From an uncultured Candidatus Saccharibacteria bacterium (GTDB lineage: Bacteria > Patescibacteriota > Saccharimonadia > Saccharimonadales > JAUPVS01), in assembly GCA_964627095.1 (NCBI GenBank), contig CAZVKH010000001.1, positions 8,451 to 72,450 of the forward strand: a DNA stretch of 64,000 bases. Reading direction: 5' to 3'. A program made the position numbers and the translations under genes. Below, in pieces: positions 4,056 to 57,287 of the stretch. How positions within the stretch are numbered: the first letter of the stretch is position 1; the number at the start of each line of letters is the position of its first letter. Under the pieces are notes generated by a model that saw only the letters and a program-made list of their open reading frames with translations, made no database searches and was not told the origin of the DNA.

Positions 4056-5894
4056 ATGAAAAAACTTATCCACTATTTCAAGACTTACAAACACTTGGGC
4101 ATCGTCATCCTAGCCATAATTATGGCCGGAGCACTCGACCTAGGTGGCTACGAACGCTATGCCAACATTGTTTTAGGCGTAACCGCTTCGTTATCGGTTA
4201 TTCCATTACTCCTAGGCATGGTTCAAGACTTACGGGACGGCCAGTACGGTGTTGATATCCTTGCCGCCACCGCCATCATTTCTTCGGTGGCTCTGGGTGA
4301 ATACTGGGCCGGTATTGTTGTCGTATTAATGTTAACTGGTGGTGAATCGCTCGAAGATTACGCCGAACACCGGGCTAAGACCGAACTCGATGCCTTGCTC
4401 AGCCGAGCACCAAAGAAAGCTCACATTCTAAAAGGCAATAAGGTTACTGATGTGCTGGCCAGCAAGGTTCAGACCAACGACAAGCTTATTATTAAGCCCG
4501 GTGAGTTGGTGCCAGTCGATGCCGTTGTCATCGAAGGTCATGCCAGTCTTGACGAATCTAGCCTAACCGGTGAAAGCTTGCCGGTCGAAAAACACGCTGG
4601 CGATGAGCTACTCAGTGGTTCGGTTAACCTGGATGGCGTTCTGACCGTTAAAGCACTGCGACCGGCCGCCGACAGTCAGTACGAACAAATCATTAAGCTG
4701 GTGCGCGGTGCAGCCAGTAACCAATCACCATTTGTACGCCTGGCCGATAAATATAGTATTCCCTTCACGATTGTTGCCTACACCATCGCTATTAGCGTCT
4801 GGGTGGCTTCAGGTGACCCAATTAGATTTTTGCAAGTAATTATTGTCGCCACCCCTTGCCCACTATTACTAGCGGCGCCAATCGCATTAATATCCGGAAT
4901 GAGCCGAGCAGCGCGTCACGGTATTATAATTAAAACTGGCTCGGCCTTAGAAAAACTGGCTCAAGTAAAAACTATTGCCCTCGACAAAACCGGTACGTTA
5001 ACGGTAGGTAAGCCAGTTGTTGGTTCGATCAAGACTTTCAATAAACATAGTCAAAATAGTGTCCTGTCAGCAGCGGCCAGCCTTGAACAGGATTCAAACC
5101 ACATTTTAGCCAAGGCCGTTGTTGCCAAAGCCAACCAGGCAAACATTAAGACCTCTAAGGTAAAGAGCCTGCGTGAAGAAGCTGGTTACGGGTTAAGCGG
5201 CCTGGTTAACCGACAGCCTGTTTTAGTTGGCAATGCCTCACTCTTGCTTAAGCACGACGTTGACCTACCCAAGAAACTCCAAGACATGGCGGCCACAACC
5301 GCCTTTGTCGCCATAGACGGCGTCCTGGCTGGTACAATTGAATTTACCGATGAAGTCCGCCCGGAGTCTAAGTCAACGCTTCAGAGGCTCCGTGATGCCG
5401 GTGTACAGCACATTCTTATGATCACCGGCGATAACGTTGCAAGCGCCAAAGCAATTGCCAAAAAAGTTGGCATAAAAGATGTTCGAGCCAACTGCTTACC
5501 AGCCGACAAATTAACTGCTGTCGAAAATATTACCAACCGACCAGTTGCTTTTGTGGGTGATGGCGTTAACGACGCACCAGTTCTGACAGCCTCGGATGTT
5601 GGCATTGCTCTGGGTGCACGTGGCTCAGCGGCGGCCAGTGAATCAGCTGATGTAGTAATTATGCTCGACGACTTTGGTCGAGTCGCCACATCTGTAGAAA
5701 TCGCCAAGCGCACCTTCTTTATTGCTAAGCAAAGTATCCTGATTGGCATTTTTATTAGCGTCGGCTTAATGTTAATTTTTGCCACCGGTAAATTTAAGCC
5801 TATTTATGGTGCTGCTCTGCAAGAAGTCGTTGACGTGGCGGTTATCTTTAATGCCTTACGTGCCCACGGTTCTTGGCGCAAAAAAACTAGCTAG
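4056..5894 (+). CDS. P-type cation-transporting ATPase (P1B-like, no N-terminal metal-binding domain); the table ORF begins at TTG 4038
   Basis: DKTGTLT phosphorylation motif, GDGVNDAP hinge, TGES actuator motif and a membrane PCP(L) motif. TATACT lies 8 nt upstream of the ATG at 4056. Confidence 0.85.
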   Translation: MKKLIHYFKTYKHLGIVILAIIMAGALDLGGYERYANIVLGVTASLSVIPLLLGMVQDLRDGQYGVDILAATAIISSVALGEYWAGIVVVLMLTGGESLEDYAEHRAKTELDALLSRAPKKAHILKGNKVTDVLASKVQTNDKLIIKPGELVPVDAVVIEGHASLDESSLTGESLPVEKHAGDELLSGSVNLDGVLTVKALRPAADSQYEQIIKLVRGAASNQSPFVRLADKYSIPFTIVAYTIAISVWVASGDPIRFLQVIIVATPCPLLLAAPIALISGMSRAARHGIIIKTGSALEKLAQVKTIALDKTGTLTVGKPVVGSIKTFNKHSQNSVLSAAASLEQDSNHILAKAVVAKANQANIKTSKVKSLREEAGYGLSGLVNRQPVLVGNASLLLKHDVDLPKKLQDMAATTAFVAIDGVLAGTIEFTDEVRPESKSTLQRLRDAGVQHILMITGDNVASAKAIAKKVGIKDVRANCLPADKLTAVENITNRPVAFVGDGVNDAPVLTASDVGIALGARGSAAASESADVVIMLDDFGRVATSVEIAKRTFFIAKQSILIGIFISVGLMLIFATGKFKPIYGAALQEVVDVAVIFNALRAHGSWRKKTS

Positions 5895-9552: not shown

Positions 9553-9689
9553 AGAATTGGAAGCGACTGCCTGGCGGCACATTTCGTCGCGGGCTCGGTG
9601 CCAGCACCTGCGCGCGCTCCTCATGAGCGCACCTTCGACTACTGTCTGCTGCGCAGCCAAGTCGAAGAACCGGCGTCTTGCTCACTGGC

Positions 9690-9720
9690 AAAGAAAAAGA
9701 GCCATCCTTATGGATGACTC
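9690..9720 (-). terminator. intrinsic terminator after tRNA-Pro (9-bp stem GAGUCAUCC/GGAUGGCUC, loop AUAA, then a U-run)
   Basis: On the minus strand the hairpin is followed by UCUUUUUCUUU immediately 3' of the tRNA. Confidence 0.7.
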
Positions 9721-9728
9721 ATTTTCTT

Positions 9729-9805
9729 TGGTCGGGGTGAAAGGACTCGAACCTTCGACCTCACGGTCCCAAACCGCGCGCGCTAGCCAACTGCGCCACA
9801 CCCCG
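9729..9805 (-). tRNA. tRNA-Pro (TGG)
   Basis: Acceptor CGGGGUG/CACCCCG, anticodon arm CGCGG-uuUGGga-CCGUG, T-arm GGUUCGAGUCC and an encoded CCA. Confidence 0.85.
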
Positions 9806-25241: not shown

Positions 25242-26750
25242 TTAACTTTCGCTGAAGACTTTTTGGACTAATTCAAGTTGCCTTTGGTTAGTCGGATCAA
25301 ACTTAGCCTTAAATACTAGGTCAAGCATCGCCGGGTCGTTTTTATACTTTTCCCAAAATGTGACAACTCGCTGCTTACCCTCTAAGTATGCCAAGTCTTT
25401 GTTAAATGTAAGTAGGTGATGCTCCCCGTCAGAAAGTCTATCATCAACGCTGGTTGGCGTGCCTCTAAATATTCGAACGCAGCCCGCGTAAGTGTTGTTT
25501 TGAGCGGTAGAAATTTGTTTTTCAGTTGGCTCTTCGCCGCTTTGAGCTTTTATCAACACTCGTGCCCGCCAAAGTGTTTCGAATACCTTGCGAAAGTCAT
25601 TTCCTTCGTAAGCTAAACCGTAGGCTGCATATCGCTCCAGATTCGGTGCATCCCAACTCGTATCCTCACCTGTTGTTGCTTTCTCGCAAGTCGAAGCAAA
25701 ACCTTCTTCGAAAGTCAGGTAGTCACTTACTTCGCCAGGTTCGGCAGCCGTGTATAGCCCCGTCCCAACCACCGGAATATCTGTCTCGATGCCACTCATG
25801 GCCCGGCCAGCATGAACTATGTATTCGTGCACTACTTTACTTAACATCTCTTTTGCAGAAGAAATAGGACCACGCTTGCCACCAATTACTACAGCCATCT
25901 GTTCTGTTTCCCAAGAAAGTGCAGTCGCCGATGGGTCGATAAGCACTTGGATTCCAGAACTATTATCAGGGTCACGCTGTTGATGAATAAGACTAAAGAT
26001 AGCGTACATATCATCGACGGTAAAATGCTGTTCTTCCGTCGGTCTTGGCTTAACATTTTCGTCCCAATACCGTAATATAGTCGGCTCAAGATCTGGGTTA
26101 TCGCTCAAGACTTTCTCATCCAGATAATCGAGTAGTTCTTGAGGTAGTGGCTTAAGTGGCTCGGCATCATTACGCTTAAGTGGAGATACGACGATAGATT
26201 TGCCTGCAACTTCTACCACAAAGCCATGTTCTAGCTCTTGCTTGAGTTGTTGCCCAACTCCAACCAACTCCTTGCCATCAATCTGACGCCAAATTTCACT
26301 TACTACGCCAGCGTACAAGTCTTGATCGGGTTTGCCGTACAGCTGTTCGTTCAGGTTTTGAACATAGCTAGCCCGGCGATCAAGTTCGTCTTCTGACATC
26401 GTAAAGTGGCCATCAATAAGTTCTTTGGCGCTTAGCAACCAATACATCTCGGCCATTCGATAAGCTGCGCTGTCCCAAATTGCCTCTTTGGCAGTCTGGT
26501 CGGGCTGCGCCTCGGCTAGTTTTAGAACCTCACCCAGAACAGATATGCCATTTCTTAGTTCGTTTTCATCTAAAACTGGGTAATCAAGGGTGGGGTTAAC
26601 AACATCGCCTGCGAGAAAATCATCTCTTTGTTGAGCCCGCTCATCTTTGTCGCCCGCCAAACGTTTATACGACTGAAATGCGATTTCAGGAGTATTGAGA
26701 GGATGGAGTTGTTCGCGTAGCGAGACTCCTTCAAGAAGTATCTCTGACAT
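25242..26750 (-). CDS. DUF1704/MATCAP-like putative HExxxH metallopeptidase; true start ATG 26750, and the table extension to 26912 is a TTG read-through across the ncRNA
   Basis: HEYIVH (HExxxH) and an EEGFA motif resembling the QEGLA family signature. TATAAT lies 6 nt upstream of ATG 26750. Confidence 0.5.
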   Translation of the reverse strand: MSEILLEGVSLREQLHPLNTPEIAFQSYKRLAGDKDERAQQRDDFLAGDVVNPTLDYPVLDENELRNGISVLGEVLKLAEAQPDQTAKEAIWDSAAYRMAEMYWLLSAKELIDGHFTMSEDELDRRASYVQNLNEQLYGKPDQDLYAGVVSEIWRQIDGKELVGVGQQLKQELEHGFVVEVAGKSIVVSPLKRNDAEPLKPLPQELLDYLDEKVLSDNPDLEPTILRYWDENVKPRPTEEQHFTVDDMYAIFSLIHQQRDPDNSSGIQVLIDPSATALSWETEQMAVVIGGKRGPISSAKEMLSKVVHEYIVHAGRAMSGIETDIPVVGTGLYTAAEPGEVSDYLTFEEGFASTCEKATTGEDTSWDAPNLERYAAYGLAYEGNDFRKVFETLWRARVLIKAQSGEEPTEKQISTAQNNTYAGCVRIFRGTPTSVDDRLSDGEHHLLTFNKDLAYLEGKQRVVTFWEKYKNDPAMLDLVFKAKFDPTNQRQLELVQKVFSES

Positions 26751-26789
26751 ATACATATTATAACATAATAGAATGAGTTTTACGATGCC

Positions 26790-26928
26790 ACTGGGGCAAC
26801 GCACATCTACGGCCTTGCTCGGAATGCATTCCTGCGCATGGCCTTGATGACCGAACCCCGGCTGCGCCGTTTGGGTTCTCGGCGCGTGCTCCATGAAAAA
26901 AGCCGAACACAAGGTTCGACTGTTTTCA
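26790..26928 (-). ncRNA. candidate structured ncRNA, copy 1, immediately 3' of tRNA-Lys on the same strand
   Basis: A 5' hairpin (9-bp stem CCAUGAAAA/UUUUCAUGG enclosing GUCGAAC/GUUCGGC) is followed by a 67-nt imperfect long hairpin. The long hairpin is about 85% identical to copy 2 (53730..53868). The 5' hairpin differs in sequence between copies but keeps its pairing. G-U pairs form only on the minus-strand reading. Confidence 0.55.
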
Positions 26929-27005
26929 TGGAGGGCCCACTGGGACTCGAACCCAGGACACCCTGCTTAAAAGGCAGGTGCTCTAACCGGCTGAGCTATG
27001 GGCCC
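26929..27005 (-). tRNA. tRNA-Lys (TTT)
   Basis: Acceptor GGGCCCA/UGGGCCC, anticodon arm CCUGC-cuUUUaa-GCAGG, T-arm GGGUUCGAGUCCC and an encoded CCA. Confidence 0.85.
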
Positions 27006-53181: not shown

Positions 53182-53715
53182 ATGTCAACTTTTGAACAAG
53201 AACGTCGTTCCCAGATGATCGATATTGCTACCTACCGGCAGATTAAGGAAATCGGCAAAGGCTTGGTGACTTTGTCGGGCGTGGCGTTTTCGGAAAAGCC
53301 CGACTATGACCTTGACCTTACTATAAGCCGCATCACCGACGAAACTTTTGGCGTATTCCCACAAATGGGTTACAAAGTTCGCGTGGCAAGCAAACAAACA
53401 CCGGAGGCAAACCACGAAAACCTATTAATTACCGTCAAAGGTTTTGGAGTAGTCGATAGCGAAGGTGAGCTACTCTACAGACGCAAAGTCGGGATAACAG
53501 TTATCGACCAAGAAGTTAAATATTCGTGGGTAGACCTTTTACTACCGCGTGATGGCAAAACACCAGAGAGAGCTCAGCCACAGAGTCAACTAGAGGCTGG
53601 CATCCGCGAACACTTTGAAGCATGGGAGCATGAAATCAGTGGACGACAATTTTACCTCGACCCGGAAAGCGCCCAAATGCTGATGGCCGAAATTCAGGAA
53701 ATCGCCGAGCTCTAA
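53182..53715 (+). CDS. hypothetical cytoplasmic protein
   Basis: ORF only. No motif recognised. Confidence 0.4.
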   Translation: MSTFEQERRSQMIDIATYRQIKEIGKGLVTLSGVAFSEKPDYDLDLTISRITDETFGVFPQMGYKVRVASKQTPEANHENLLITVKGFGVVDSEGELLYRRKVGITVIDQEVKYSWVDLLLPRDGKTPERAQPQSQLEAGIREHFEAWEHEISGRQFYLDPESAQMLMAEIQEIAEL

Positions 53716-53729
53716 GGCTTTTGGCGGGG

Positions 53730-53868
53730 CAGGGCAACGCACATCTGCAGCCATGCTCGGAATATATTCCTGCGCGTGGCTTTGATGACCGAACCTGGGC
53801 TACGCCCGACGGTTCAAGTCTTCTCTGTGACCAAGAAAAAAGACCCTTCTTGTGAAGAGTCTCTTTTC
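53730..53868 (-). ncRNA. candidate structured ncRNA, copy 2, immediately 3' of the initiator-like tRNA on the same strand
   Basis: 5' hairpin CCAAGAAAA/UUUUCUUGG enclosing AGACUCUUC/GAAGGGUCU, then a long hairpin about 85% identical to copy 1. There is a compensatory G-C to A-U change in the GGCC/GGCC helix. Confidence 0.55.
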
Positions 53869-53944
53869 TTGGTAGCGGGGGCAGGACTCGAACCTGCGAC
53901 CTCGTGGTTATGAGCCACGCGAGCTGCCACTGCTCCACCCCGCG
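53869..53944 (-). tRNA. tRNA-Met (CAT), initiator-like (C1 x U72 unpaired)
   Basis: CGCGGGGUGGAGCAGUGGCAGCUCG...CUCAUAA...GGUUCGAGUCC..CCCCGCUACCA closely resembles bacterial tRNA-fMet. The 1-72 mismatch is retained. Confidence 0.8.
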
Positions 53945-54024
53945 TCGAGTTGAGCAAGCTATAGCATACCAGATGAAAGCTACTTATACAACATCGGTGG
54001 GAAATGTGGTAGAGTATCTTCACT

Positions 54025-54726
54025 ATGACCGATATGCTCGCTCCTTCAGCCGAAGCCGAAAAATTGCCAACAGATGACCCGACAACCATACTAGCACTTG
54101 AAGCACGCGACTTATTACTCGCCGCCAGCCAAGCCGAACCGGGCAGCCCGGATGAGGTAGCCGCCCTAGAGGAAGCCAATAGTCGCTTTAGCGAGCTGGT
54201 TAGCGAAACCCAGGAATTCCTTACCAAATTTGCTCTGAGCCGCCCCCACCCCAGGCATTTTGATGTGCAAGAAGTAGTCCAGGAAACCTACGCCCGAGCC
54301 TATAAGGGTTTACATAATTTTAGGGGTGACGCCAAGTTTTCTACGTGGCTATTTTACGTTTTGCGCAGCTGTACTGATAACTACTGGAGACGCGAGGCAC
54401 GTCACAACAATCAGCCCCTACCCGAAGAAGACGGTTCAGATCCATCCTTGGTTGGTAGTATTGCCGTGGTGTCATCATTAGATACTGGCGAGGTCGACAG
54501 CTTTTTGGACTACAGTAGCCTTTCGCCGGAACTAGAAGCAATGCTGGCCACTTTAAGTCCCAAGCAACAACAAGCTATTCGTATGCATGACGTAATGGGA
54601 CAAACCACTAAAGAATGTGCCGCGCAACTAGGTGTTAGTGAAATTAGTTTTAAGATGAACGTACACCGGGCTCGCCATAACCTACGCCGCGAATTCCCCG
54701 ATGCCAGAAACTGGTTAGAAGAATAA
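54025..54726 (+). CDS. ECF-type RNA polymerase sigma-70-family factor
   Basis: Region 2 (YARAYKGLHNFRGDAKFSTWLFYVLRS) and region 4 HTH (LSPKQQQAIRMHDVMGQTTKECAAQLGVSEISFK). Confidence 0.75.
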   Translation: MTDMLAPSAEAEKLPTDDPTTILALEARDLLLAASQAEPGSPDEVAALEEANSRFSELVSETQEFLTKFALSRPHPRHFDVQEVVQETYARAYKGLHNFRGDAKFSTWLFYVLRSCTDNYWRREARHNNQPLPEEDGSDPSLVGSIAVVSSLDTGEVDSFLDYSSLSPELEAMLATLSPKQQQAIRMHDVMGQTTKECAAQLGVSEISFKMNVHRARHNLRREFPDARNWLEE

Positions 54727-54728
54727 TC

Positions 54729-54756
54729 TTGACAAATTAGCAACTTCATGTATAAT
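54729..54756 (+). promoter_or_regulatory. near-consensus sigma-70 promoter TTGACA-16-TATAAT
   Basis: Read directly. This is the best promoter match in the window. It drives a short transcript that ends at the terminator at 54925. Confidence 0.7.
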
Positions 54757-54814
54757 ACTTAGTGTTGTCATGACAAAACAAACAACAAAATAAAACAACA
54801 GGAAACTACACACA

Positions 54815-54898
54815 ATGAAATCACAACTCGCCTACGAGTTCGCCCAAACCCAAGATCAGGCAGTTTCACAATTTGACGATCTAATCTCATCTTTGTAA
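54815..54898 (+). CDS. candidate 27-aa small protein (MKSQLAYEFAQTQDQAVSQFDDLISSL) or sRNA body
   Basis: AGGAAA lies about 10 nt upstream of the ATG. The unit sits between a consensus promoter and an intrinsic terminator, and it is below the ORF-track cutoff. Confidence 0.35.
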   Translation: MKSQLAYEFAQTQDQAVSQFDDLISSL

Positions 54899-54924
54899 AC
54901 CTACTCGATCAAACTCCCATAAAA

Positions 54925-54956
54925 GAGCCCTTTAAGCGCAAAGGGTTCTTTTTATT
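54925..54956 (+). terminator. intrinsic terminator (GAGCCCUUU-uaagcgca-AAGGGUUC followed by UUUUUAUU)
   Basis: Read directly. Confidence 0.75.
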
Positions 54957-55034
54957 GCCGTTCGCCTTTCAGCTAGCTGGTCAACAGAGGCAAAACATGG
55001 TATATTCACTGCTGTCCATGTAACAAGTTTATAG

Positions 55035-55111
55035 GGCGGCGTAGCTCAGTTGGTTAGAGCACAGGACTCATAAGCCTGGGGTCACAAGTTCAAATCTTGT
55101 CGCCGCTACCA
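55035..55111 (+). tRNA. tRNA-Met (CAT), elongator type
   Basis: GGCGGCGUAGCUCAGUUGGUUAGAGCACAGGACUCAUAAGCCUGGGGUCACAAGUUCAAAUCUUGUCGCCGCUACCA. The 1-72 pair is G-U, and the D and T arms match elongator tRNA-Met. Confidence 0.8.
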
Positions 55112-55167
55112 AACTTATTTGATATCGCTTGTGTTTAACCCCGTTTGGGGTAATAATAAACGGTATT

Positions 55168-55842
55168 ATGGATATGGATCTTAAACCCCCGACGCAGCCC
55201 AAATATCAGCTTAAGGAAACTCCGCCACCCGGCGCAACGCCACCTGAACCGCAGATGGACGACCCCTTTAAAGTTGATCCGCCACCACCCGAACTAACCG
55301 TACCTAAACCAAAGAAAAAACGCAGCGGCAAAGCTAAAAAGGCTTTGCTGGTTATTTTAGTATTGGCTCTGCTTGGTGCGGCCGGCTATGGTATTTACTA
55401 CTGGCAACACCAGCAAGTCGACAAACTAGCTAAAGAAAACCAGGCTCTAACCGCCCAACTAGCTGCCGCCAATAAAAAAGCTAGTGATGCCGAAGCCGAG
55501 AACGCCAAGCTTAGCGAAGCAGCCACCCCGCCAACGGCCGATACTTTGGTAATTACGGCTGCTACCGCCGATTGCCAGGCCGAGGTTGACCCAGCCACTA
55601 AGAAGGCTTTGGTATACACCCAAGGCACGCAAGGCACTGACAAAAAGAAAGTGCTGTATTCGACTGATAAGACCTTTGCCAAGGTTAGCGCTACCTGTGC
55701 TGCCACCGCTAACGCCACCGAGCCAGCCACGCTGTACTATGCTAAATTAGCCGGTACTACCTGGACGGTCATCTATGCTGACACCGCCGAGCCCGACGCC
55801 GACGTAACTGCTTTGTACGCCATCCCAACTGAATTCAAATAA
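55168..55842 (+). CDS. single-pass membrane protein with Pro-rich cytoplasmic N-terminus, coiled coil and Cys-containing extracellular domain
   Basis: TM helix ALLVILVLALLGAAGYGIYYW. Start set at ATG 55168 (the table ORF starts earlier, inside the tRNA trailer). Confidence 0.5.
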   Translation: MDMDLKPPTQPKYQLKETPPPGATPPEPQMDDPFKVDPPPPELTVPKPKKKRSGKAKKALLVILVLALLGAAGYGIYYWQHQQVDKLAKENQALTAQLAAANKKASDAEAENAKLSEAATPPTADTLVITAATADCQAEVDPATKKALVYTQGTQGTDKKKVLYSTDKTFAKVSATCAATANATEPATLYYAKLAGTTWTVIYADTAEPDADVTALYAIPTEFK

Positions 55843-55891
55843 AAGAACCGGCCTCTGGAAGCCGGTTCTTAATTTTACGTTAACTCTTTAA

Positions 55892-56296
55892 TTAAGAGTC
55901 TTCGCGTAGCTCGCCACCATGAACGATCAATGCGTAAAGCACCAATACGTCGATCAGGATGGCAGCGAGTGACCAGACTGGGTAGGCTGGAATAAACGCC
56001 ATGCTAGTCAGCAATGATACAGTTGTCACGATAACGGCAACGATGCGACCAAACAAGTGGCCCGAAAGTACCGAGAAACCAGCGAACAATAGAATCATCG
56101 CCAAAACTAGTTGACCCCAGCCCCAAGCTGTAAAGTTAAAGACTGCTAGGTGCTGTTCGGTAACAACGTAGAATGAACTACGAGTTAATGAAACGATGCC
56201 CAGGAATGCCTCGAAAAAGGCGCGCACGATCAGAAGTATACCGGCAAAGTATACCCAGCCGACCCATCCAGATGGTTGTGTTGTTGGTTTAGCCAT
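55892..56296 (-). CDS. hypothetical four-helix membrane protein
   Basis: Hydrophobic ORF. No motif recognised. Confidence 0.45.
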   Translation of the reverse strand: MAKPTTQPSGWVGWVYFAGILLIVRAFFEAFLGIVSLTRSSFYVVTEQHLAVFNFTAWGWGQLVLAMILLFAGFSVLSGHLFGRIVAVIVTTVSLLTSMAFIPAYPVWSLAAILIDVLVLYALIVHGGELREDS

Positions 56297-56361
56297 AAAA
56301 GCCCTCCTTAGTTGATGATTAAATCATCTCGCTTACTGGAATTTTTGTCAAGGAAGTTGCC

Positions 56362-56676
56362 TTAACGCTTATGCTTTTCAGTATGAGATTCGGCACGGGC
56401 TTGCATTTTTTGACCACGCTTCTTTACAAAGGCGTTTATAAAGGCACCAAAAATAGCAATTCCTAGCAGAATGTAGATGGTCGTAAATAACTTACCGGCA
56501 TCGGTTTTGGGCGTAATGTCGCCATACCCAACAGTGGTTAGGGTGACGATGCAAAAATAGTAGGCATCGACCCAGCCCCACTTTTCGACAAAGTGATAGA
56601 AAGCCATGCCAACCCCCAACACTGCGAAAGTAATGGTTAGTAGTAGCCTGTACATATAGCGGTCAAGTGGGTTCAT
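56362..56676 (-). CDS. minimal two-TM potassium-channel-family protein
   Basis: Selectivity filter TTVGYGD between two hydrophobic helices. 104 aa. Confidence 0.8.
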   Translation of the reverse strand: MNPLDRYMYRLLLTITFAVLGVGMAFYHFVEKWGWVDAYYFCIVTLTTVGYGDITPKTDAGKLFTTIYILLGIAIFGAFINAFVKKRGQKMQARAESHTEKHKR

Positions 56677-56691
56677 TGGTTTCTCCTGTAA

Positions 56692-57150
56692 TTATTTATC
56701 TGTCTGGCGATGTTGGAAAAAGTCCATCCAGGCTTGAAAGTTGCGCTGGAAAGTCGATACTACCACAGCTGGCTGAGCGGCCTTATTTTGCTCTTTGGAC
56801 ATATCAACAGTGTTGGCCAGCGCCACCCGCTTGGGCACCAAAACCAGTTTTTCATTAGGGGCGGCCTTGCCGAACTGGCGCCGGGCGGCTAGTTCCAGGA
56901 ATTGGTTGGTATTGTAGTACTGATTGGCTAGCTTTTGGTTATTATTCTGGAGATCCAGCACCTGGTTTTCTTGCTGTATAGCCGAGATTTGCTTTTGCAG
57001 GCCGTAGTTAGTCTGAATAGCCGAGATTGTACTCCAGCTTACTAACAGGGCAATGCCGGCAAAGATTAAAAGCCCCACCACGCGCACGTCTTGGAGTTGC
57101 TTAAAATAGGGATGGTTTTGGATATTTTTGATTTTACTGTTCATGAACAT
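56692..57150 (-). CDS. FtsB/DivIC-family septum formation initiator
   Basis: N-terminal TM, a coiled coil (ISAIQQENQVLDLQNNNQKLANQ), then FLELAARRQFGKAAPNEKLV. Confidence 0.6.
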   Translation of the reverse strand: MFMNSKIKNIQNHPYFKQLQDVRVVGLLIFAGIALLVSWSTISAIQTNYGLQKQISAIQQENQVLDLQNNNQKLANQYYNTNQFLELAARRQFGKAAPNEKLVLVPKRVALANTVDMSKEQNKAAQPAVVVSTFQRNFQAWMDFFQHRQTDK

Positions 57151-57211
57151 TTTTATTATACAATCCTTTGCCCAAAATCTGCTATACTCACTCTGTTAAT
57201 ACCACGACCAC

Positions 57212-57287
57212 GGGGGTGTAGCTCATCGGTCAGAGCAGGCGGCTCATAACCGCTTGGTAGATGGTTCAACTCCATCCACCCCCACCA
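57212..57287 (+). tRNA. tRNA-Ile2-like (CAT; probable lysidine substrate)
   Basis: GGGGGUGUAGCUCAUCGGUCAGAGCAGGCGGCUCAUAACCGCUUGGUAGAUGGUUCAACUCCAUCCACCCCCACCA. Its anticodon arm is near-identical to E. coli tRNA-Ile(LAU), and tilS is present in the window. Confidence 0.7.

Follow-up and report, generated by a model that had tools for sequence, protein, structure and literature searches.

The stretch analysed here, called the window throughout, comprises 64,000 nucleotides (nt) of contig CAZVKH010000001.1 (assembly GCA_964627095.1, positions 8,451-72,450). On its minus strand, directly 3′ of a tRNA-Lys gene (26929-27005) and of an initiator-like tRNA-Met gene (53870-53944), lie two copies of a compact module built around a 61-nt hairpin that we call H. 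Copy 1 (W1) belongs to the tRNA-Lys locus and copy 2 (W2) to the tRNA-Met locus; a third, decayed unit follows tRNA-Pro, and the module is present at three of the six tRNA loci of the window. The order of a unit is tRNA, terminator, inverted half, small variable hairpin, b′, H, C′ and, often, a second terminator. The b′ segment, 5′ of H, is a direct copy of the variable loop, the T-stem 5′ strand and the TTCG of the upstream tRNA (positions ~44-57), and C′, 3′ of H, is a direct copy of positions 59-76, which run from the final two bases of the T-loop through the 3′ strands of T-stem and acceptor to the discriminator and CCA. Where DNA has been inserted at a tRNA gene, the module lies at the far end of the insert, which is either the terminator alone or 1-6 kb of accessory genes. 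It seems to represent a recombination module of Saccharibacteria that is linked to tRNAs and has not been described before. The features of the three units are as follows, where R1 denotes a covariance model built from H and used on the window and on the fetched loci.

26929..27005, minus strand: intact tRNA-Lys(UUU) (ARAGORN; Rfam tRNA, 72.4 bits), from whose 3′ half the flanking copies of unit 1 derive.
26894..26928, minus strand: intrinsic terminator of tRNA-Lys, a symmetric A-tract, stem-loop and T-tract (terminator scan: stem 26921-26901 and TTTTTT).
26873..26893, minus strand: degenerate inverted tRNA-Lys 3′ end (TGGAG...GAGAACCC), starting with the reverse complement of CCA (by reading; p 0.28 alone).
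26852..26872, minus strand: connecting loop and b′ of unit 1, CCGGGGTTCG against CCTGGGTTCG (T-stem 5′ strand and TTCG) in the tRNA (sequence comparison).
26797..26857, minus strand: H of copy 1, three helices with conserved internal loops and a variable apical loop (R1 79.4 bits, E 1.5e-19; fold; covariation).
26787..26797, minus strand: C′ of unit 1, a decayed copy of tRNA-Lys from position 59 onward, GCCCCAGTGGC against GTCCCAGTGGGCCCTCCA (sequence comparison).
53870..53944, minus strand: intact tRNA-Met, initiator-like by its C1 mismatch (ARAGORN; Rfam tRNA).
53834..53869, minus strand: intrinsic terminator of tRNA-Met, AGACUCUUC-ACAA-GAAGGGUCU and then UUUUUUCUU (sequence reading and fold).
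53796..53833, minus strand: inverted degenerate tRNA-Met 3′ half (TGGTCACAGAGAAGACTTGAACC) and the hairpin GGGC-GUA-GCCC (p 0.03; conserved in the related loci L003 and L017).
53735..53795, minus strand: H of copy 2, including the GGTTCG end of b′ (R1 85.5 bits, E 3.3e-21).
53722..53735, minus strand: C′ of unit 2, a decayed tRNA-Met 3′ end, GCCCTGCCCCGCCA against GTCCTGCCCCCGCTACCA (sequence comparison).
9573..9728, minus strand: third, decayed unit behind tRNA-Pro (9729-9805), with a degenerate H at 9573-9633 (R1 33.2 bits, E 8e-7).
Parts of the tRNA-Pro unit, minus strand: terminator 9691-9728, inverted remnant 9659-9690, and b′ GTAGTCGAAGGTGCG at 9628-9642.

A preliminary description of this DNA had correctly located both ~138-nt stretches on the minus strand, each immediately behind the 3′ end of a tRNA, and had taken each of them as a single paralogous RNA made of two hairpins. 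The first of these hairpins is an ordinary Rho-independent terminator, made symmetric by an upstream A-tract. It has a GC-containing stem, a loop of 4-5 nt and a U-tract directly 3′ of the tRNA, at the end of a transcription unit, and in none of these respects does it differ from known intrinsic terminators. Contrary to the earlier statement that no U-tracts follow the hairpins, the inner stem runs straight into six or seven U residues in both copies, and the 3′ strand of what had been described as an outer stem is that same U-tract, paired with the A-tract upstream. The terminator scan calls copy 1 and misses copy 2, in which direct reading gives a 9-bp stem, the loop ACAA and then TTTTTTCTT; copy 2 was probably missed because the A and U tracts lengthen its stem. 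The tRNA-Pro and tRNA-His genes of the window are followed by terminators of equal A-tract/stem/T-tract design with unrelated stems. Furthermore, the terminator between CCA and the inverted TGG has been replaced by an unrelated one, with the flanks kept, both between copy 2 and the near-identical locus L003 and between copy 1 and the orthologous locus L027. Because terminators are swapped wholesale and their stems are unrelated among tRNAs, the first hairpins of copies 1 and 2 are not homologous; the pairings that had been listed for them are present and fold as given, and no covariation can be drawn from them. The position of the terminator also argues against release of the downstream element from a tRNA co-transcript by RNase P/Z, since it would halt most tRNA transcripts ahead of H. 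As an observation in its own right, the terminator segment (53834-53869 compared with L003; 26894-26928 compared with L027) behaves as an exchangeable slot.

The second hairpin, H, is of a different nature. The conserved block that contains it is 86.7% identical between the two copies over 75 nt (26794-26868 against 53732-53806), with no further full copy at that level, and a 30-nt degenerate pattern finds these two sites only in the window and nothing in 100 shuffles. The earlier estimate of about 85% identity is thus borne out, while its count of two copies has to be raised by the decayed third H at 9573-9633 (minus strand), the left flank of which matches the tRNA-Pro T-arm.

Homologues of H were collected by pattern scans designed from the conserved block, one over species-representative genomes and one over metagenomes. 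The scans returned 23 true loci; all those that carry a taxonomic label come from Saccharibacteria or Patescibacteria. Three other matches (L007, L012 and L019) were chance database matches inside coding sequence and were dropped. Many loci stop at contig ends near H, as is expected of a repeat. One locus, L004 (DATHJH010000025.1), is filed under Candidatus Limnocylindria (Chloroflexota), yet its initiator tRNA-Met is of the Saccharibacteria type and has a unit, and its sequence equals that of the metagenome contig L020 across the ~100 nt compared around H. This genome fragment is probably mis-binned.

Covariation was assessed on 18 distinct H sequences from Saccharibacteria genomes and metagenomes, using RNAalifold and a count of our own. 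In this set H is a 61-nt element with 17 pairs in three helices, and the variable stems were free of constraint by the search patterns. The cells of the proposed pairs are paired in 98.4% of cases, against at most 46% when the partners are slid by 1-3 columns; seven pairs show changes on both sides (34 cells), and the covariation score was reached in 0 of 500 shuffles. The G-C to A-U change noted earlier in the GGCC/GGCC helix (AGCC/GGCU in copy 2) is real and is one of many such double changes across the 18 sequences. G-U or U-G pairs occupy 11 variable cells in addition to one invariant U-G, which adjoins a bulge, and the mirror combination A-C occurs once. Since G-U and U-G pairs far exceed their mirror image, the fold of H belongs to the tRNA-sense strand. 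The earlier claim of a structured, strand-specific element with compensatory changes therefore holds for the second hairpin, not for the 138-nt span as one paralogous RNA.

A scan of the window against Rfam at gathering score returned only its eight tRNAs, and at E values up to 10 no relevant family lies over H in either copy on either strand. The possibility that H is a divergent signal recognition particle (SRP, 4.5S) RNA or belongs to another known RNA family, which had already been doubted, is refuted at this level and can be considered practically nil. What speaks for it is a loose visual resemblance only (AGG ... AGCA), to be set against the lack of any SRP, 6S, tmRNA, RNase P or Y-RNA match at E up to 10 for either copy or strand, three copies in 64 kb, and an apical loop that is variable rather than GNRA. 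A leader or riboswitch function can likewise be set aside, as had been concluded earlier: no gene follows copy 2 on its own strand, a convergent open reading frame (ORF) ending there at 53715.

Overlooked in the preliminary description were the surroundings of H, which consist of direct and inverted copies of the 3′ half of the tRNA. In all true instances, H substitutes for the T-loop base A58, its junctions falling exactly behind G57 and ahead of position 59. The flanks take their sequence from the neighbouring tRNA, whatever its identity; the units found so far accompany initiator-type tRNA-Met, tRNA-Arg (five anticodons, among them UCG, UCU, CCU and GCG), tRNA-Asp, tRNA-Asn, tRNA-Lys and, in decayed form, tRNA-Pro. 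In well-kept units, C′ is identical to the tRNA over 15-18 nt and then leads into a second terminator; such copies of positions 59-76 are found in L001, L005, L006, L009, L010, L014, L018 and L026. The flanking tRNA copies of window copies 1 and 2 are decayed, and the C′ of the tRNA-Met unit is complete (CCTGCCCCCGCTACCA) in the relative L017. The inverted copy lies between the terminator and b′; it is the reverse complement of the tRNA 3′ half in degenerate form and starts with TGG, the complement of CCA. Compared with shuffled sequences over 13 units, its best alignments yield a Fisher combined p of 2e-14, against no significance for the control in direct orientation. The inverted T-arm pairs with b′ in a hairpin that encloses a small variable stem-loop, and in copy 2, L003 and L017 this pairing is kept despite the drift of b′ from the tRNA sequence. 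For the best-kept units, the predicted single-strand DNA folds are a three-way junction or two adjacent long hairpins, with z scores of -5.7 and -6.8. The smallest units contain the terminator as their sole insert and measure about 170 nt in all.

Two loci depart from this pattern in their tRNA parts. At L023 (2256-2359, minus strand), the C′ after H (TCCAAGTCCGGGAGCCA) does not match the 3′ terminus (TCCTACCTCGCCAGCCA) of the partial tRNA that precedes the unit, and a 17-nt spacer is present in place of a terminator and inverted half; this exception comes from a short contig. At L017 (3800-4160, minus strand), the unit lies behind a partial tRNA-Met that begins in the anticodon loop, as one would predict from the integration of another element upstream, at the anticodon loop.

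Between units at different tRNAs, homology is limited to H. The similarity of H is independent of tRNA identity: the Lys copy is nearest to the Met copy in the window lineage, Arg-CCU is nearest to Asn, and Met is nearest to Arg-GCG. These facts, together with the exact junctions, could also reflect two separate events, in which integrase-encoding islands left displaced tRNA 3′ fragments as attR scars and a miniature hairpin, H, subsequently inserted after TTCG in these dispensable T-loop copies. Such a hairpin might resemble repetitive extragenic palindromic (REP) sequences or miniature inverted-repeat transposable elements (MITEs), or be moved by a nuclease of the IS200/IS605 type or another HUH nuclease. 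In keeping with this scenario, H is multi-copy and breaks assemblies, and tRNA fragments without H, both a T-arm and a 3′ half, occur within cargo (L014, ~2611 and ~5227). We regard it as unlikely all the same. All full-scoring copies of H found lie in a tRNA fragment with an inverted partner and none was seen elsewhere; no transposase gene and no gene resembling REP-associated tyrosine transposases (RAYTs) was seen nearby; and the inverted half is left unexplained.

The relative L027 also bears on this scenario. It encodes a DUF1704 protein 78% identical to that of the window and has the tRNA-Lys followed by an unrelated terminator, after which the inverted remnant GCCGAGAACCC, conserved with copy 1, runs straight into the C′ remnant AGTGGGCAT. 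Missing from L027 are 79 nt that comprise the loop, b′ and H, so that the difference from the window is not H alone, as insertion of a lone hairpin would have it. The gap is bounded by CCC on both sides. Read as a deletion, L027 shows that the unit is old at the tRNA-Lys locus and that H can be lost. Close relatives differ in the presence or absence of H and in the terminators, which are swapped.

The same neighbourhood explains an annotation in the window. The DUF1704/MATCAP-like gene next to copy 1 is 550 amino acids long in the public record and reads through H; its homologues have about 495-508. As these lengths and a TATAAT box 7 nt before the ATG at 26750 indicate, the N-terminal extension (26751-26912, minus strand) is probably spurious and the mRNA leaderless, in agreement with the preliminary description. 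At the tRNA-Met locus, three tRNA-Met genes lie within 3.4 kb (53870-57287), one on the minus and two on the plus strand, an arrangement that is syntenic in L003; among the three, only the initiator-like gene has the module.

R1 also finds further copies in the fetched loci, some of which belong to a second class, H′. This class has in common with H the base of the hairpin on the folded strand (GGTTCGGTC ... GTGCGYTG) and the position within the T-loop copy, and it differs in its interior, which shows compensatory changes of its own. The sites of H′ are the following.

L025, reverse strand: H′ just after tRNA-Met.
L009, 8570-8720 and 10185-10241: two H′ sites.

Several loci contain arrays, in which cargo lies between the tRNA (or the preceding C′) and the inverted half, and the accessory-gene inserts flanked by units measure 1-6 kb. 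The order in L025 is tRNA-Met, a minimal H′ unit, 3.6 kb of cargo encoding a glycosyltransferase and an 801-amino-acid surface protein, an H unit, a further 1.6 kb and a decayed unit; here, H stands at the 3′ end of co-oriented cargo genes. In L014, 6 kb between two near-identical units encode a GDSL lipase, an HTH-M78 regulator, a HigB-like toxin and unknown genes, and L009 has three units 1-1.5 kb apart. In all three arrays the newest-looking unit adjoins the tRNA. The L014 cargo also contains two tRNA fragments without H, namely a 3′ half with a long variable arm at ~5200-5255 (Ser/Leu-like, ending in CTCTCCGCCA) and a bare T-arm fragment at ~2600-2640. These may be remnants of other tRNA-targeting elements.

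H together with its tRNA-like flanks could alternatively be a functional non-coding RNA, produced by terminator read-through or as the 3′ end of cargo transcripts, with a possible role as a processing or stability signal for tRNA-maturation enzymes or as a decoy for proteins that bind the T-arm and acceptor end. The covariation, the G-U pairs formed only on the tRNA-sense strand, the invariant U-G beside a bulge and the conserved internal loops are all what such an RNA would show. An RNA would also account for the intact H of copies 1 and 2 amid decayed tRNA copies, for the pairing of the small hairpin retained in copy 2, L003 and L017, and for the location of H behind co-oriented cargo genes in L025. 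Against this, a strong terminator separates the tRNA from H with no promoter-like AT-rich sequence in between, and in copy 1 the promoter of the next gene lies downstream of H. H and H′ are alike only at the base of the stem, no Rfam family matches, and flanks that copy the adjacent tRNA require DNA duplication rather than selection on an RNA. Taken together, the duplicated tRNA fragments, the inverted half, the cargo borders and the two classes that share a base are hallmarks of a DNA recombination or attachment site and not of an RNA gene. A free-standing RNA gene is accordingly less likely than a DNA-level site, and a functional RNA of the kind outlined here seems improbable to us.

Purely local rearrangement could be proposed as well. 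Template switching at the terminator palindrome might generate direct, inverted and direct copies in succession, with H being spread by gene conversion. The direct-inverted-direct order with hairpins at the turning points fits such a process, and so does the finding that, in the window lineage, the H of the Lys locus is closest to that of the Met locus. The process would nevertheless have to repeat itself identically across many lineages and nine or more tRNA species, always placing H at one and the same nucleotide, and it explains neither the unit-bounded cargo arrays nor H′. We consider it very unlikely.

A recombinase or mobile-element partner was sought in several ways. ORFs of the window were searched for recombinase motifs, and the eight ORFs beside copies 1 and 2 were compared with Pfam. 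No integrase or transposase family recurs by Pfam among the 88 neighbouring ORFs; Phage_integrase is not among the 21 families matched by at least two of these ORFs; with 25 of the 70 matched families listed, a match to a single ORF is possible. Pfam likewise detects no integrase or transposase in the cargo of L014 or L025. The sole tyrosine recombinase found is a XerC/XerD-type protein of 304 amino acids in L021 (923-1837, minus strand), encoded 0.8 kb past H with a nucleoside diphosphate kinase gene in between, and it is probably a housekeeping Xer. An oriT/relaxase interpretation, prompted by the GTGCGC after H, was dropped as no relaxase was seen; relaxases are rare in Patescibacteria (PMC12102498). 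An intron in the T-loop was also rejected, H being far too small and the upstream tRNA intact. Published tRNA introns of Patescibacteria are group I introns situated in the anticodon loop (PMC13011429).

The reading that we favour takes the module for the end at which non-autonomous cassettes, inserted at tRNA genes, attach or recombine at the level of DNA; we judge the evidence for this proposal to be evenly poised. The similarity of H without regard to tRNA identity, the restriction of homology to H and the occurrence of H′ at the same position all point to movement between loci, presumably by site-specific recombination. The catalyst would be an enzyme encoded elsewhere, outside the cassette. 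In the tRNA-sense single strand, the inverted half could pair with b′ and C′, and this pairing would rebuild a duplex image of the 3′ half of the tRNA gene, from which H would protrude as a side branch and might serve in recognition or strand selection. If one strand were then exchanged with the tRNA gene of the chromosome, at a point 3′ of H, the product order would be tRNA, cargo, inverted half, b′, H, C′ and host flank, which is the order observed. The anatomy of the units, the covariation, the strand asymmetry, the occurrence beside many tRNAs and the cargo arrays are observed; the mobility, the single-stranded form and the role of H are inferred. Natural competence is a possible source of the single strand, Saccharibacteria being naturally competent and able to take up DNA (PMC10633639).

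Several points weigh against this proposal. Neither a recombinase, nor a free circular form, nor an empty orthologous site was identified. L027 is read as a deletion across hairpins and not as an empty site; the tRNA itself is missing from L028 and L030, likewise reached through DUF1704 homologues; and a search for more tRNA-Met loci through the neighbouring sigma-factor gene returned one homologue only. In viral contigs, two pattern scans found no real copy, the 38 loose-pattern matches scoring at most 18 bits by the model. The mechanism leaves unexplained how the inverted half, b′ and C′ would be re-matched at a different tRNA. The intact H in old units with decayed flanks (copies 1 and 2) hints at a function in place, something that a purely selfish site could do without, and the G-T wobbles and conserved internal loops fit an RNA equally well. 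In addition, the invariance of GCGCAGG, of CCGAGCA and of either CATCAA or AGATGTG was imposed by the search patterns, and the H sequences come mostly from metagenome contigs, many of them truncated close to the element.

Saccharibacteria and other Patescibacteria have very small genomes with few recognisable mobile-element genes, and their gain of accessory genes is poorly understood. A recombinase-less module that recurs at insertion borders next to no fewer than nine tRNA species would suggest that genes are gained by a specific route. Going further, one may imagine a cassette-capture system of undescribed kind in Saccharibacteria, consisting of recombinase-less cassettes, a single-stranded DNA site that imitates the tRNA 3′ half, H as a handle for a host recombinase, and integron-like arrays built up at many tRNAs of these tiny genomes, for instance following DNA uptake through natural competence; we put this forward tentatively, as a possibility on the doubtful side. 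For genetic work on these bacteria, which have only recently become tractable, the module could offer a landing pad. Its practical effects are broken assemblies and false N-terminal extensions, as in the DUF1704 gene, and it may be mistaken for a new RNA gene. No description of the module was found in the searchable literature; its nearest counterparts among known systems are compared below.

REP sequences and their doublets (REPINs), MITEs and IS200/IS605-derived elements resemble H in being short, multi-copy imperfect palindromes without coding capacity, with exact junctions and no classical target duplication of the hairpin itself. In contrast to dispersed intergenic elements, the copies of H found all lie in T-loop copies beside tRNAs, and no transposase, RAYT or TnpA gene was seen in the fetched DNA.

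The resemblance to genomic islands at tRNA genes is more extensive. A displaced copy of the tRNA 3′ end classically marks the distal boundary of an island integrated at a tRNA gene (PMC4383910). Like islands of this Islander type, the module is associated with inserts directly 3′ of an intact tRNA, has a direct repeat of the tRNA 3′ end at the far border (decayed in the window), and forms tandem arrays by tRNA genes with cargo such as toxin-antitoxin, surface and glycosyltransferase genes. Its inserts differ from classic tRNA-gene integration in that no integrase gene was found inside or adjoining them, and many units are tiny, with a terminator only and about 170 nt in all. The module also has an inverted tRNA half, and its displaced fragment is interrupted exactly at A58 by a conserved, strand-specific hairpin.

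A precedent for a folded attachment site exists in the case of CTXphi, which integrates at dif by means of a folded single-stranded att site and the host Xer recombinases (PMC3089051, PMC3442271). In form, the modelled annealing of inverted half-sites within one strand of the module would imitate a duplex target in the same manner, the module likewise has no recombinase of its own, the predicted integrated order is observed, and the strand asymmetry fits. The module differs in imitating the 3′ half of a tRNA gene and not dif, in having neither filamentous-phage genes nor a match to viral contigs, and in its large conserved hairpin branch, which has no counterpart in CTXphi.

Integrons offer the last comparison. 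The attC sites of integrons act as hairpins whose fold is tied to one strand and which combine a conserved base with an interior that varies. RYYYAAC/GTTRRRY cores are found on neither strand of H, there is no adjacent IntI or attI, and the arrays described here begin at a tRNA gene and have tRNA-derived flanks. In other respects the likeness is close: each cassette has at its 3′ end an imperfect hairpin of ~60 nt with a conserved base, a variable interior (H versus H′) and a strand-specific fold, and the promoterless accessory cargo is carried in arrays in which the newest unit lies beside the insertion point.
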